In this document: positions 1 through 44,330 of the stretch, piece after piece | Layout: each line of letters begins with the position of its first letter | How positions within the stretch are numbered: the stretch's first letter is position 1 | DNA from: a phage | Sequence record: PZ527900.1 | DNA length: 44,330 nucleotides | Direction: 5' to 3' (one strand) | The notes under the pieces: model-generated | Seen by the model: the letters and a program-made list of their open reading frames with translations, nothing else | Told to the model about the DNA's origin: nothing | The model's database searches: none | Position numbers and translations under genes: made by a program

Positions 1-403
1 TATCTAACCTAGGTCGAGTGCGTAGTGCTAAGGGCGTGCTCAAGGAGTTCATTCAAGATAACGGATACGTTGCCGTGATGTTAGGTGCTGGTGTGCGTAA
101 ACTGGTACACCGCTTAGTGGCTGTAGCATTTGTAGCTAATCCAGAAGGGAACCAGAGGTTAATCATAAAGACCATGTGCGCCATCACAATATGGCAGTTA
201 ACCTTGAATGGGTTACACGACAAGAGAATATCGATCACTCAAACAACATTACTACCTTCCGTTTAAGAAACGAAATAACAGGTGAAGTTGTAGAAGGGCG
301 TAATTTGGCAGCCTTCGCTAAAGAGCGAGGTTTAATTTATCCCAATCTCAATAAAGTAAATACAGGTGTGCGTCGTTCGCATAAAGGATGGGTAAAAGCA
401 TGA
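1..403 (+). CDS. HNH homing endonuclease, continuation of the ORF that starts at 44233; reading frame broken by a 1-nt indel near 148-152 (ORF pieces 18-266 and 176-403)
   Basis: Frame 0 gives VSNLGRVRS...GYVAVML...VHRLVAVAFVANPEG; the +2 frame continues EVNHKDHVRHHNMAVNLEWVTRQENIDHS, a His-Asn-His motif. Neither frame alone gives a full-length protein. Confidence 0.6.
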
Positions 404-11741: not shown

Positions 11742-11791
11742 AGGGCAGGTAGTGGCTTGCCCTTGATTGTATAGTGAGTGGAGGAGTTAAT

Positions 11792-12130
11792 ATGTTACAG
11801 CATCATTATGACAATACCTGTATGGCCTGCTTAGGAGAAGGTGAAGGGTACCTGCATACTTGCAAAGGCCCGGTTAAGTCCAACATGTTGGACAACAATA
11901 TGGTTACTAAGCCGAAGCACTATGAGTTCTTCGAAGGTGTAGAGGCAATCACTATCATTGCCCGTAGCATGACCGAGAAGCAATTCGCTGGGTATTGCAT
12001 GGGTAACGCTTTGAAGTATCGCCTGCGTGCAGGTAAGAAATTCAACACTGAAGAAGACCTGAAGAAAGCAGACTACTACAAAGAGTTATTCCAGAAGCAT
12101 CGTCACGAATGTATTGATGAGGATATTTGA
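11792..12130 (+). CDS. DUF3310-like phage protein (112 aa)
   Basis: GGAGGAG 5 nt upstream of ATG; PKHYEF...GNALKYRLRAGKK...DLKKADYY pattern typical of the DUF3310 family (recalled). Confidence 0.55.
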   Translation: MLQHHYDNTCMACLGEGEGYLHTCKGPVKSNMLDNNMVTKPKHYEFFEGVEAITIIARSMTEKQFAGYCMGNALKYRLRAGKKFNTEEDLKKADYYKELFQKHRHECIDEDI

Positions 12131-33662: not shown

Positions 33663-33742
33663 ATAAAGATAGTGCCGTTCTTTTGAGCGGCCTATTACTA
33701 GCCAATCTTCATAGGGAGGGTTGGGAAGTAATAGGAGATAAC

Positions 33743-35665
33743 ATGGCTAGTATCACTAAACCCAGGACAACAGGTATTATTCATAAAGACACATCTTTAT
33801 ACGAATACCTAGAATCCTACTCTACAAAAGGTGCAGTACAACCAGAGCAGTTTGGTGCAGACAACAAGGGTATTACATATTCTACAGAAGCACTGCGTTC
33901 TACATTCGTATTTGCTAAAGAGCATGGTATGAGGGTAGTAGGTTCCGGTGTCTATCTTGTAGATGGCTCAATAGAGACACATGGTGTACCTTTTGACCTC
34001 TCTGCTGCAACATTAAAACTTGATGGTGCTAAGATGGGAGGTGGCGTGAAGACGCTACTCATTACAGACGAAGAAACACAAGTTATACCTAATTTTGACT
34101 TAGGTGGGATGGTGAAAGGTCAGTCTGGTACTTTGACGCTTGCAACTTATGATGAGTGCTCTGTAGGTATCGACTCAACTGAACCGGCTTATCTTCGTGC
34201 AATTACACCTTCATATACTTTGTATAAGAAGGATATACTTGTTATCAATAAGAATGTACATCGTCTTACTCCTGCATTCTATGATATTACTTCTCCTGTA
34301 ACATTGACAGTTAGACCACTACGTCAAGAGATACATTGTAAGCTGCCTAAGTTCGTATTACATACAACTCCATCGGGTAGGTTTGGTTCTCTAGTGTATG
34401 TTGCTCGAAACAATGTAAAATTATCTGGTGGTTACGTGGATTCTGACACGATGAGTGTTGCTCTTTCCAGAAATATTCTTGAATCATTCATTCGTGCAGA
34501 GAAGTGTGCATTTTTGACTGTACTAGATGTACACTCAAAGATGAGCCCACTAGACAGCGGATACCAGGTTGTAGTAGACCAAGTACACGGTCTTACTATG
34601 GAACGATGCACGGACCAAACAGGGTGGAGGTTACAGGATGGTAACTACTTCCGCAATACGATGATTCGTGATTGCCAAGGAAGGGGTATAGGTGGTCATG
34701 CTATGACTTACAACTATTCTGTTGAGAACTTCACTAATTGCTATAATGGTATTCATCTTACTGGTGAGGGTTACTTGAGTGTCAAGAACATCCGCAATGT
34801 AGACTATGGTGGTAACTTGAAAGATGGTGGTATAGTTAAGATTCGTGAAGACTATGGTACAAGCTGGGATGGTGATATTTATATTGATGGCGTAGATATT
34901 CTGGTACAACCTGTGACTGGTTCACCTGATGCACTTTCTGTGCTTCTTATGTGGGCATCCTACACTGGGACACAGGACTATACGCAGGAAAGCGTACAAT
35001 GGGGTAAGTCTGTTACTGTCAAGAATGTACACATAACCAACCGTACATCAAATCGTATCAACTTGACACCTGTGGAATGGAAAACATCTCTTGCTCAGAA
35101 CGTTACACCTCCCTCTCAGATCAACGTAGATACAGTAACTATGTCTGGTGTCGGTGATGTGCGAGTATTACCTCTTGGGTTTGATTTATATTCAGATGCT
35201 AAAGTGGCACAAGTCACTACCATCATGAATGTATCCAATATCGATAACAAGTTAGGTACGGTGGATATAGCTCAATCTATTGCAGATGGCACTAAACCTA
35301 ATATCCGTAATGCTATTGTGCGTAACATTAGCAATTACCGTGGACTCGGTTTAACCCTAAGTGTTCCCGATAAATGCTACACTTATGTTAAGGACAGTGT
35401 TGTAAACTTTATAAATGGTGCAGCTAAGGATGAAGGTAAGCACTACTTTTATAATTGTCGAATGACAGGCACTGAGTTTAGCACTAACCAAGGTTTTAAC
35501 CACTTTTACAATTGCCATTTTGATACCGCTAAAGCGGACTTCAAGGTAGGTACAAGGGTTACTGTAGGTTGTCATATTAATAATGGTGCGGCTATTACAG
35601 GCGGTGGCGGTGGGGTTACTTCTGCTGCTGCATTATGGTCCTATAAGGACTCCACTTATGCTTAA
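33743..35665 (+). CDS. tailspike protein 1, pectate-lyase-like beta-helix (probable polysaccharide depolymerase)
   Basis: N-terminal VQPEQFGADNKGITYSTEALRS is typical of pectate-lyase-type tailspikes; Gly/Asn/Val/Thr-rich repetitive composition; no T7 gp17-like N-terminal anchor. Confidence 0.75.
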   Translation: MASITKPRTTGIIHKDTSLYEYLESYSTKGAVQPEQFGADNKGITYSTEALRSTFVFAKEHGMRVVGSGVYLVDGSIETHGVPFDLSAATLKLDGAKMGGGVKTLLITDEETQVIPNFDLGGMVKGQSGTLTLATYDECSVGIDSTEPAYLRAITPSYTLYKKDILVINKNVHRLTPAFYDITSPVTLTVRPLRQEIHCKLPKFVLHTTPSGRFGSLVYVARNNVKLSGGYVDSDTMSVALSRNILESFIRAEKCAFLTVLDVHSKMSPLDSGYQVVVDQVHGLTMERCTDQTGWRLQDGNYFRNTMIRDCQGRGIGGHAMTYNYSVENFTNCYNGIHLTGEGYLSVKNIRNVDYGGNLKDGGIVKIREDYGTSWDGDIYIDGVDILVQPVTGSPDALSVLLMWASYTGTQDYTQESVQWGKSVTVKNVHITNRTSNRINLTPVEWKTSLAQNVTPPSQINVDTVTMSGVGDVRVLPLGFDLYSDAKVAQVTTIMNVSNIDNKLGTVDIAQSIADGTKPNIRNAIVRNISNYRGLGLTLSVPDKCYTYVKDSVVNFINGAAKDEGKHYFYNCRMTGTEFSTNQGFNHFYNCHFDTAKADFKVGTRVTVGCHINNGAAITGGGGGVTSAAALWSYKDSTYA

Positions 35666-35747: not shown

Positions 35748-37340
35748 ATGTTACAGCGTTTAACCTCTAAGTTAGTAAAATATAATGACGGGAATCTTAA
35801 AGACTACCTAGACCTACAACGTAATGGGTTATCAGAAGGTAATGTAGATACTATTGGTTTCTACTTGAACTTTGGTTCATTCAAGGTAAATAAAGATGCC
35901 ACATTCATTGCATCTGGTGGTCTGATTCCTGGAGGCTATGACAGGGTGGATAGAAGTTTCTCTGAGGGATATAGGTATGAATATGGTGCCCTTAAGATGC
36001 AAAAGTATTGCTTTGGTATATTTGAGGATGCTTGTGTGCTTGCTGCCATAGCAGGTAGTAGGTCAAAGGAAAATGCGACACAAATACTTGGGGCGGGTAC
36101 TGGTGCAGATGTTGCTAAATACAACAATATAGACACAGCAGCCACATTCTTTGAAAACGTAGCTCAACCTGCATATCTTCGTTCTGACACTGCCATCTTC
36201 ACACAAACTACTGCATCTGGTATTTCTGTTCCAGAAAAGATGAGATACAACATGGTAGCTATGGTTGTTAACGGTGAGAAGCGCTGGTATGGTCTTATTA
36301 AATCATGGACTCAAGACAGCATCACAGTAGACGGGTGGTATGAAGCTAAGACAGCTAAAGCGTCATTACCTTCAGGTACACTACTGATTCAACCTCAGTT
36401 GCGAGTGTGGGCGTCTAATATGCTTGTTGATATACCAGCTAATTCTGATGCGGAGTCTGCTGTTGGTCTTGAGACTATGGTTACATTGCAAAAAAGAGGT
36501 GTTGGTGCAAACACCCAAATCTACAAGGCTATCAATAACAATGTCATAGGCGAAAGGGCAGATTCAGCATATGAAAGTGTTGGCTTATTTGCTACCGGAT
36601 ATAGAGCAACACAAGGTTGTGTAGAAGGTTTTAAGTCTGAAGCTTCTAGCAATTCAGGCTTTATCTCGGTGCAAGACCAGATTGGATTACGTGTACTAAA
36701 CCCAGTAGTTAATGCCTTTCAAATTGATAACGCAGACCATACTAACCTCTTTATCGATGCAGGTGGTTCTATCATGCAGCAGTCTAAGAAGGCCGCCGGG
36801 TCTGTCGTGGCATCTTTTGGTCCAAACCCAGCGGCAGGTCTTACTGTCTATGCAAGAGGTGGTGGTGGTGCAAATGGTGCAGCTACTGTCGTTACAGTAG
36901 GTAAGGATGTAGACACTGGTCGCTCTATTAATGCTGGCGGTACTATAAACGCATCAGGTGCAGACTACGCTGAATATATGGTTAAGTCCGAAGGTTGTCC
37001 GGTGATTAATAAAGGGGATGTGTGTGGTGTAAATAGTGATGGAGAGCTAACAATGGTCTTTGATGATGCAATCTCCTTTGTTGTTAAATCAACAGACCCT
37101 GGGTTAGTAGGGGGTGACATCCATGAAGACTTAACTAAAGTGGACCGTATCGCATTCTGTGGAAGGGTTCCTGTAAATGTTGCTGGCAAAGCAGGTGACT
37201 ATATTATTCCTATCAGAAAGGATGATGGCTCTATTGGTGCTGTTTCTGTGCACGAACCAACCTTCGCGCAATACAAACTTGCTGTAGGTAGGGTATGGTC
37301 TTCTGGAGAAGAAACTATTATTGCAGTTAAAGTGTGCTGA
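35748..37340 (+). CDS. tailspike or tail fibre protein 2 with C-terminal autochaperone-like domain
   Basis: AAGGAG RBS; C-terminal GADYAEYMVKSEG...GDVCGVNSDGEL resembles the ADYAEY signature of autoproteolytic intramolecular chaperone domains. Confidence 0.7.
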   Translation: MLQRLTSKLVKYNDGNLKDYLDLQRNGLSEGNVDTIGFYLNFGSFKVNKDATFIASGGLIPGGYDRVDRSFSEGYRYEYGALKMQKYCFGIFEDACVLAAIAGSRSKENATQILGAGTGADVAKYNNIDTAATFFENVAQPAYLRSDTAIFTQTTASGISVPEKMRYNMVAMVVNGEKRWYGLIKSWTQDSITVDGWYEAKTAKASLPSGTLLIQPQLRVWASNMLVDIPANSDAESAVGLETMVTLQKRGVGANTQIYKAINNNVIGERADSAYESVGLFATGYRATQGCVEGFKSEASSNSGFISVQDQIGLRVLNPVVNAFQIDNADHTNLFIDAGGSIMQQSKKAAGSVVASFGPNPAAGLTVYARGGGGANGAATVVTVGKDVDTGRSINAGGTINASGADYAEYMVKSEGCPVINKGDVCGVNSDGELTMVFDDAISFVVKSTDPGLVGGDIHEDLTKVDRIAFCGRVPVNVAGKAGDYIIPIRKDDGSIGAVSVHEPTFAQYKLAVGRVWSSGEETIIAVKVC

Positions 37341-37341
37341 T

Positions 37342-37485
37342 ATGCCATTAGTGAGGTCAGTAAAGCAAAGTGCTGTACGCCAGAATACAGAAGAACTCAT
37401 CAAGTCAGGACGTGACCCTAAGCAGGCTTATGCTATTGCTAAGGACGTACAACGTCGTGCCTTGAAGAGGCCTTCTGCATCTTAA
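37342..37485 (+). CDS. possible small basic protein (47 aa), weak
   Basis: ORF without a convincing RBS. Confidence 0.2.
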   Translation: MPLVRSVKQSAVRQNTEELIKSGRDPKQAYAIAKDVQRRALKRPSAS

Positions 37486-37496
37486 AGGAGATTGAT

Positions 37497-37872
37497 ATGG
37501 AAACGTGGGTAACTATTCCTGGCTACCCACGGTATCAAGTGCCTACTCATGGACGTGTCAAATCGCTCATTGGTAATCACAAGATACTGAAGCCGGGCAA
37601 GTCAAAGAGTGGGTATTTAAATGTAGTTCTTAGTAACGAGGGAGGCAAGAGGACATTCCGTGTGCATCGCTTGGTTGCACTATGTCACTTGCCTAACCCT
37701 CATAACCTTCCCCTTAGTGAACCACAAGGATGAAGACAAGGCACATAATCATGTAGACAACTTAGAGTGGTGTACTGAAGAGTACAATCTAAAGTATTCA
37801 CGTGACTATGACAGGTCTTCTCTTAGTGTAACCCAAGGGAAGAAGAAGGTATGGCTTCCAGTTGACCTGTAA
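37497..37872 (+). CDS. second HNH homing endonuclease; frame broken by +1 C in a C4 run near 37710 (ORF pieces 37497-37733 and 37660-37872)
   Basis: AAGGAG RBS; N-part WVTIPGYPRYQV...HRLVALCHLPNP, C-part VNHKDEDKAHNHVDNLEWCTEEYN in the +1 frame. Confidence 0.6.
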
Positions 37873-38249
37873 CATTTAGGTAACAAAGTCAAAATTTTGA
37901 TATAGGCGTGTGTGGGGTGTCTCGGCCTCGGCCTCGCCGGGTTGTCCCCGTATGGGGTCGCTCGGCGGTTGGCTTGGGAATTGGTCTAGGCTGGTCCGTC
38001 TTCGACGGGTAGGCCGAGGCTTGCCTTGTACTCGCTTAGTGGTACACAAGGAGGGTGCCTAGGAAGCGCTAGGGCACGCCTTAGTATTGGACAAGGTGAT
38101 TGCCTTAGTGCAACCGCTTAGGGCTTACACAGGGCCATTCTGGGCCTTTATGGGCTATTGACAGGGTGGGCGGGTGTGGGCTATCTGTTCGTTTCGCCTA
38201 GCGGCTCAACTCAGCTCACTCCGCTTGCGCTACGTTCACTCGCTCACGT

Positions 38250-44050: not shown

Positions 44051-44076
44051 GTATTTACCGGACAGTATAGATAAGA
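44051..44076 (+). promoter_or_regulatory. phage RNAP promoter P11 (variant CAGTATAG)
   Basis: TATTTACCGGACAGTATAGATAAG, with C to G at -5 relative to the consensus. Confidence 0.5.
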
Positions 44077-44100: not shown

Positions 44101-44229
44101 ATGCGTAACTTTGAGAAGATGACCCGTAAAGCTAAGCGTTTCGACATGGAAGAGGGGCAGACGAAAGGCAAGAAGCTGAATAAACCTGTCCGTGACCGTG
44201 CATCTAAACGCGCAGCGTGGGAGTTCTAA
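44101..44229 (+). CDS. T7 gene 1.1-like small basic protein (42 aa)
   Basis: GGAG 8 nt upstream; MRNFEKMTRKAKRF...KGKKLNKPVRDRASKRAAWEF matches the size, position after tandem promoters, and sequence pattern of T7 gp1.1 as recalled. Confidence 0.6.
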   Translation: MRNFEKMTRKAKRFDMEEGQTKGKKLNKPVRDRASKRAAWEF

Positions 44230-44232
44230 GTT

Positions 44233-44330
44233 ATGGAATTGTGGCGCAACATAGAAGGTCATGAAGGTTATGAGGTATCTAACCTAGGTCGAGTGCGTAG
44301 TGCTAAGGGCGTGCTCAAGGAGTTCATTCA
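44233..44330 (+). CDS. N-terminus of the HNH homing endonuclease that continues at window position 1
   Basis: ATG 3 nt after the previous stop; MELWRNIEGHEGYEVSNLGRVRS... is in frame with ORF 18-266 through the 55-nt overlap. Confidence 0.6.
   Translation, partial: MELWRNIEGHEGYEVSNLGRVRSAKGVLKEFI
44276..44330. other. 55-nt duplicate of window positions 1-55 (circular-assembly overlap)
   Basis: Exact identity of the last 55 nt with the first 55 nt, inside a coding sequence. Confidence 0.9.

Follow-up and report, generated by a model that had tools for sequence, protein, structure and literature searches.

The stretch of DNA considered here (record PZ527900.1; 44,330 nucleotides, called the window) contains two free-standing genes, HNH1 and HNH2, whose predicted products are NUMOD4-HNH homing endonucleases of the I-HmuI-like type, and each of them is interrupted by a frameshift of a single nucleotide. 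The window holds the whole genome of a podovirus that resembles SP6 and K1-5 (Molineuxvirinae, closest to Vectrevirus), with Escherichia phage PSK8 as its best overall match (91.9% identity over 87% of a 23-kb query) and about 89% identity to K1-5 and its relatives. HNH1 is located between gp8 and the primase/helicase gene, and HNH2 follows the tail-spike module near the right genome end. Positions 1-55 are identical to 44276-44330, exactly 55 nt, which would be an assembler overlap left in a circular contig by a de Bruijn-graph assembler with k = 55, and which indicates short-read de Bruijn assembly. Given this duplicate, the unique unit is 44,275 bp and the sequence is permuted, and it is because of the circular permutation of the contig that the window begins inside HNH1. 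The physical ends of the genome probably lie near 37.9-38.3 kb. The two loci are made up as follows.

44233..44330, + strand: 5' end of HNH1, encoding MELWRNIEGHEGYEVSNLGRVRS..., set by alignment with the start codons of BP12B and GRNsp03 (44276-44330 duplicates 1-55)
1..266, + strand: HNH1 zero frame continued, NUMOD4 through G64 (147-149)
within 1..266, + strand: HNH1 out-of-frame tail of 37 codons, ending at the premature stop TAA 264-266
147..153, + strand: HNH1 frameshift site GGGAACC, one base short between 151 and 152 (three intact orthologs aligned)
152..403, + strand: HNH1 catalytic and C-terminal part in the -1 frame, PEVNHKDHVRHHNMAVNLEW... (ortholog and I-HmuI alignments)
37497..37733, + strand: HNH2 zero-frame ORF of 78 aa, NUMOD4 through P72, then 6 out-of-frame codons and TGA 37731-37733
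37710..37713, + strand: HNH2 frameshift site, CCCC where the orthologs have CCC (ortholog alignment)
37714..37872, + strand: HNH2 catalytic and C-terminal part in the +1 frame, LVNHKDEDKAHNHVDNLEW..., stop TAA 37870-37872

The true start of HNH1 is the ATG at 44233, three bases past the stop of the gp8 homolog (44101-44229), and the gene crosses the contig junction to end at TGA 401-403, which overlaps the primase/helicase start codon (ATG 400-402, as ATGA), likewise in BP12B. For alignment, 44233-44275 was joined to 1-403 and compared by MAFFT with three intact ORFs of 447 nt, those annotated in the Salmonella phages BP12B and GRNsp03 and the corresponding gene of Lelliottia phage phD2B. One 1-nt gap was found in the window, at GGGAA-CCAGAGG, where BP12B and GRNsp03 read GGGAAGCC and phD2B reads GGGAAACC. 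The missing base is the third of codon 65 (Lys), between window positions 151 and 152, and the codon that it completed was AAA or AAG; the run affected was therefore at most 3 nt long, or there was none. When the repaired protein was searched against the window with tblastn, residues 1-64 and 53-148 were found in different frames (E 6e-39 and 4e-53), and PEVNHKDHVRHHNMAVNLEW... lies in the -1 frame, whose open stretch extends over 140-403. By alignment with I-HmuI the predicted catalytic histidine is H70 (CAT 164-166). Since the frameshift ends upstream translation at 266, the primase would no longer be translationally coupled to HNH1, if it ever was. The primase may have a ribosome binding site of its own in the AAGGA at 384-388, upstream of its start.

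The HNH2 locus extends over 37497-37872, and the region 37338-38000 was aligned with the sequences of Sem1 and of two LI10P3 assemblies, in all three of which the gene is an unbroken ORF of 375 nt. Exactly one extra C is present in the window, which reads CTTCCCCTTAG with CCCC at 37710-37713, where the orthologs read CTTCCCTTAG with CCC. Residues 1-73 and 71-124 of the repaired protein fall in different frames (tblastn, E 8e-68), and the predicted catalytic histidine, by homology, is H76 (CAC 37723-37725). In the genome as given, the HNH motif of neither gene is in frame with its start codon.

These alignments with three intact orthologs of each gene, together with the tblastn frames, uphold the central claim of a preliminary description of this DNA, namely that both genes are broken by single-nucleotide frameshifts, HNH1 being one base short in GGGAACC (the gap between 151 and 152) and HNH2 having one extra C near 37710. 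The comparison with related phages that it proposed turned up intact ORFs for both genes (447 nt for HNH1, 375 nt for HNH2). Its placing of both changes in homopolymer runs strictly fits HNH2, where C3 became C4; in HNH1 the run was at most three nucleotides (AAA) or absent (AAG). It had also placed HNH1 at 1-403, which does contain the frame switch but is only the 3' 90% of a gene that begins at 44233.

The repaired proteins, 148 aa for HNH1 and 124 aa for HNH2, consist of NUMOD4 followed by HNH_3. NUMOD4 (PF07463) was detected in both, in HNH1 with E 1.5e-10 and 41.6 bits against a cut-off of 23.4, and in HNH2 with E 1.5e-9 and 38.4 bits. HNH_3 (PF13392) reached 26.3 bits in the repaired frame of HNH1, against a cut-off of 24.8; in repaired HNH2 its 16.4 bits lie under the Pfam cut-off, and the VNHKD...NHVDNLEW motif is present nonetheless. 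Repaired HNH2 is also 94-97% identical to annotated intact HNH orthologs. The closest well-described counterpart is I-HmuI (PDB 1U3E), of the NUMOD4/HNH_3 nicking homing endonucleases, with which HNH1 aligns over residues 4-100 (E 2e-13), and the VNHKD...NLEW of repaired HNH1 aligns with the DHKD...NLRW of I-HmuI. In both systems an N-terminal NUMOD4 sheet is followed by the HNH motif. I-HmuI differs in being intron-encoded and 174 aa long with a C-terminal helix-turn-helix region, whereas the putative enzymes HNH1 and HNH2 are free-standing, shorter (148 and 124 aa) and frameshifted before the catalytic histidine.

Both genes have a patchy distribution. HNH1 is found in 3 of the 89 phage records that match the gp8-primase region (only BP12B, GRNsp03 and phD2B), HNH2 in 6 of the 79 that match the right-end region, and neither in K1-5 or PSK8. 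The gp8/primase slot (window 44230-403) was compared with that of other loci (L094, L095, L097 and L102), and in ten metagenomic or SRA contigs with an identical gp8 it was either empty or held other inserts, these being a 162-aa HNH, a 118-aa HNH or an unrelated 72-aa ORF. In LL11 the slot holds a different HNH that is 42% identical, and there are at least 4 different inserts at this place among the relatives. A 220-nt spacer at the slot in contig L095 was considered as a decayed HNH remnant and set aside, as an unrelated 72-aa ORF lies there. From their sequence and neighbourhood, HNH1 and HNH2 would thus be typical homing endonuclease genes, that is, mobile inserts, in insertion hot spots. 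Among 50,697 phage records, the close homologs of both genes are all single-piece ORFs.

Other features of the genome were recorded alongside these loci. The tail-spike genes at 33683-35665 and 35748-37340 share only an N-terminal adaptor with K1-5 gp46, and beyond that adaptor no match to the K1-5 and PSK8 spikes was found, which points to a swapped host-range module as the probable nature of this pair. SP6-type phage promoters (ATTTAsskGACACTATAGrAGA with at most 3 mismatches) gave 11 matches, all on the + strand, and the candidate at 44053 would drive the gp8-HNH1-primase block. A 16-nt perfect palindrome, GTCTCACATGTGAGAC, occurs in 7 copies with at most 2 mismatches, where 0.01 would be expected; several of these are located 5-16 nt upstream of SP6-type promoters (43865, 44053 and 8559), and the palindrome may form a hairpin, mark a processing site or serve as something like an operator. 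The positions are as follows.

2336, 6817, 7280, 8559, 11719, 16555, 31298, 33640, 39760, 43865 and 44053, + strand: matches to the SP6-type promoter consensus
999, 2567, 8528, 24718, 38525, 43845 and 44032: copies of the palindrome GTCTCACATGTGAGAC with at most 2 mismatches

As a check on the remainder of the sequence, all annotated K1-5 and PSK8 proteins were searched with tblastn against the circularised window. Every protein common to the window and K1-5/PSK8 was recovered as one full-length HSP in one frame, among them RNA polymerase, primase/helicase, DNA polymerase, portal, capsid, tail, internal virion proteins and terminase, in agreement with the earlier statement that the large essential genes are all intact. 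The genes verified in this manner total 35,929 nt and contain 1,287 homopolymers of at least 3 nt, 193 of at least 4 and 27 of at least 5, none of which is disturbed. The HNH genes amount to 822 nt with 36 runs of at least 3, and the chance that two random indels would both fall in those 822 nt is 5e-4 by length, or about 7e-4 when counted by runs of at least 3. Single-base gaps number 62 between the window and K1-5 and 57 between PSK8 and K1-5, so that 1-nt indels are not over-represented in this assembly. The two tail spikes, which have no close reference, are uninterrupted ORFs of 660 and 530 codons (3.6 kb), and for want of such a reference they could not have been rescued by reference-based polishing. 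Indels confined to genes with a dispensable product are the pattern of selection and not of sequencing noise. One candidate for a third frameshift, at 11774-12130, is homologous to the 'nucleotide kinase' of K1-5 and PSK8 and matches K1-5 only from residue 80; it was rejected, as its ORF is intact and its N-terminus different; that N-terminus is shorter and Cys-rich, MLQHHYDNTCMACLGEGEGYLHTCKG....

Once repaired, the genes themselves appear to be under full constraint. Comparison with the orthologs in the repaired frame gives a dN/dS of 0.08-0.13 for the whole genes and of 0.04-0.08 for the parts downstream of the shifts, and no second lesion is present in the repaired frame of either gene. 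The amino acids specific to the window all lie upstream of the shifts (residues 17, 24, 27, 56 and 59 in HNH1, and 16 and 49 in HNH2), so that neither dN/dS nor window-unique changes downstream of the shifts give any sign of relaxed selection after disruption. With no relaxed selection and no further lesion, the indels must be either very young or an artefact that is absent from the DNA. Searches for an independent copy of the phage lineage by exact-protein look-ups (the 78-aa HNH2 fragment, a tail spike, a gp48-like protein and the RNA polymerase) found none, and exact DNA patterns across either site, with 0 or 1 extra base, recovered only BP12B, in IMG/VR, and nothing in JGI metagenomes or GTDB genomes.

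The second of these possibilities, that both genes are intact and that a short run was given the wrong length in the consensus at each site (AAA as AA, and CCC as CCCC), is the form in which the sequencing-error alternative of the preliminary description would have to hold. The flawlessness of each gene in the repaired frame, with its low dN/dS downstream of the shifts and the lack of window-specific amino-acid changes there, is the main point in its favour, and it is also in keeping with single-base length changes in or beside short runs and with a 55-mer overlap that would also fit SPAdes on Ion Torrent data. Such errors, however, are expected at random or in long runs, yet the 193 runs of at least 4 and the 27 of at least 5 in 35.9 kb are correct, no run of more than 3 nt is involved at HNH1, 1-nt gaps are not in excess over those of an independent genome pair, and the unique tail spikes (3.6 kb without a close reference) are intact ORFs. 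With a chance of only about 5e-4 that both errors would strike the HNH genes, miscounting is disfavoured statistically and is an unlikely explanation, though the foremost of the rivals.

The decay of similar genes has also been described in other phages. The T5 genes hegJ (with two point deletions) and hegG and the T4 pseudogene mobA are degenerate HNH genes, and hegJ and hegG are degenerate in one T5 strain (ATCC 11303-B5) and intact in others (PMC2248197). As in the present genome, these are small HNH genes between conserved phage genes in a phage that is otherwise intact, and they are intact in some isolates while bearing point deletions or insertions in others (PMC2248197). They differ in that the host here is an SP6/K1-5-like podovirus, both homing endonuclease genes are hit at once, and HNH1 and HNH2 have a single lesion each, at homologous codons, with no further decay. 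More generally, homing endonuclease genes are described as passing through a life cycle of invasion, fixation (saturation), degeneration and loss (PMC5009752), with which these cases agree.

Closer at hand, HNH2 orthologs clustered at 90% identity form a group of 13, and two of these are truncated. P0131 (97 aa, on a 30-kb contig from Logan/ENA) ends in ...DNLECALKSTI*, and the deletion of one G from GAGTGGTGT in ortholog DNA would yield DNLECVLKSTI*; judged from the protein tail only, P0131 thus appears to be an independent frameshift by a 1-nt deletion, at codon 90-91. P0129 (89 aa, on contigs of at most 44 kb) ends after ...VDNL, by a nonsense mutation or at the contig end. Both truncations, at residues 89-90, are inside the HNH motif and elsewhere than the lesions in the window. 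A split between NUMOD4 and HNH of the kind seen in the window was found in 0 of 91 related loci (IMG/VR and other contigs).

The preferred reading, to which a probability of about 0.75 is given, is that both frameshifts are genuine, very recent and inactivating, and that they represent ordinary decay of homing endonuclease genes with no new mechanism. In a lineage that already carried the element, the nuclease would no longer have been under selection, and with no selection to retain it, replication-slippage indels in short runs would have been tolerated here and nowhere else in the genome. The single-base indels, a loss in HNH1 (-1 nt) and a gain in HNH2 (+1 nt), each precede the catalytic histidine by 4-5 codons, and because they lie ahead of it only N-terminal NUMOD4 fragments would be translated and no ββα-metal nuclease. 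The predicted products have 64 native and 37 junk residues for HNH1, and 72 native and 6 junk residues for HNH2. What was seen directly comprises the indels, the domain content, the intact state of the rest of the genome, the intact orthologs and the independent P0131 frameshift; that the indels are in the phage DNA and not just in the consensus, and that they are neutral and not selected, we infer. The preliminary description had offered sequencing error, decay and dosage-limiting frameshifting without ranking them, and of the three it is decay that is favoured by the confinement of the lesions to the genome's only two selfish, dispensable genes, the clean assembly and the P0131 frameshift.

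One feature of the two lesions sits uneasily with simple neutral decay. The HNH1 and HNH2 proteins are only about 41% identical, and their lesions fall at the same aligned position, with K65/P66 of HNH1 aligned with L71/P72 of HNH2, 4-5 codons ahead of the catalytic histidine. The breakpoints, each marked by a slash, are these.

HNH1, ...NPEGK/PEVNHKD: the last base is lost from the codon ahead of the conserved Pro
HNH2, ...NPHNLP/LVNHKD: a base is gained within the Pro codon

Both lesions keep the full NUMOD4 ORF and remove the full HNH motif, and the chance of hitting the same codon to within one is roughly 2-3%, a post hoc estimate with n = 2. Two NUMOD4/HNH splits in one genome at the same homologous codon are an unexplained coincidence that counts against simple neutral decay, and the shared position is the only hint of anything past it.

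An adaptive, parallel knock-out would account for the coincidence if nuclease activity were selected against, for example because it harmed the phage itself or the host or was costly to express, or if the NUMOD4 fragment were itself selected for. The two shifts at a homologous codon, which spare NUMOD4 and remove HNH, the 2-3% chance of such an agreement, the youth of both lesions and the rarity of such splits elsewhere (0 of 91 loci) all fit this. The coincidence was, however, noticed after the fact with n = 2, any function of isolated NUMOD4 fragments is purely putative, P0131 and P0129 break elsewhere, at residues 89-90, and the shared site may simply reflect short runs (GGGAAACC and CTTCCCTT) that coincide with the conserved Pro codon. 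An adaptive knock-out is accordingly held to be quite improbable. Even less credence is given to a fuller version, in which both indels are real and non-neutral and have turned the HNH proteins into nuclease-less NUMOD4 DNA-binding fragments, perhaps with a trickle of HNH2 (about 1% or less) made by a slip at CCC-C. If this were true, the frameshift would not be a step in the decay of a selfish nuclease but a switch, favoured by selection, by which it is tamed.

The trickle itself deserves separate comment. On reading the HNH2 sequence, the inserted C creates CCC-C, where a +1 slip of tRNA-Pro from 37710-12 to 37711-13 would re-pair perfectly and regenerate the exact wild-type ...NLPLVNHKD, although a CCC-C of this kind would be an automatic by-product of any C inserted into a C-run. 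CCC-C is known to be shift-prone; when most favourably placed, it gives +1 frameshifting of up to about 1% in E. coli (PMC4519876). A little full-length HNH2, about 1% or less, is physically plausible, and at this CCC-C site only. There is also a precedent for a 'savior' indel with compensatory frameshifting in the thymidine kinase of HSV (PMC5009743). The G-run mutants of that gene and the CCC-C studied with sufB2/m1G37 resemble the present case in the homopolymer indel and in a slip that, for HNH2, regenerates the wild type at about 1% or less (PMC5009743, PMC4519876). The present case differs in that the runs are 2-4 nt and not 7, the HNH1 site is not slippery and the frameshifts are not conserved in the orthologs, and any importance of a trace product would here be conjectural.

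Such precedents, with the perfect +1 re-pairing at CCC-C and its known shift-prone nature, are what could be said for the proposal of the preliminary description that ribosomal frameshifting yields a little full-length nuclease and that the indels act as dosage limiters. The remaining evidence runs against it. At HNH1, the zero-frame codons CCA GAA GGG AAC CAG make -1 re-pairing impossible throughout 140-157, and no X XXY YYZ heptamer is present at the site. The two sites would need shifts in opposite directions, -1 in HNH1 and +1 in HNH2, and the next zero-frame codons, CAG in HNH1 and CUU in HNH2, are neither stop nor rare; the CUU is no hungry codon either. No SD-like stimulator lies upstream of either site, and the 80 nt downstream fold no better than shuffled sequences (z -1.25 for HNH1 and -0.99 for HNH2), as do windows of 141 nt (z +0.15 and -0.62). 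None of the close orthologs has a frameshift at these sites, all being plain ORFs, and the frameshift is thus no conserved decoding feature. In prfB (+1), dnaX (-1) and the tail-assembly chaperone G/GT (-1), two overlapping ORFs in different frames likewise encode one protein, but there a defined slippery sequence and a stimulator are present and conserved, whereas HNH1 has no slippery sequence, HNH2 has the shift-prone CCC-C, and at neither site is there a stimulator or conservation among orthologs. Programmed frameshifting was therefore rejected, there being no slippery site in HNH1, no stimulator and no conservation among orthologs, and dosage control by recoding is hardly credible. Transcriptional slippage was likewise discarded, as RNA polymerase slippage needs far longer runs than the 2-4 nt available here.

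The finding would be of wider interest only if selection, whether for DNA-binding fragments without nuclease activity or for leaky expression, had placed both lesions at the same point, which the present results do not demonstrate. For the annotation of this genome, it means that both loci are best entered as HNH homing endonuclease pseudogenes with a frameshift, or marked for verification at the level of the reads, and not as four small hypothetical ORFs.
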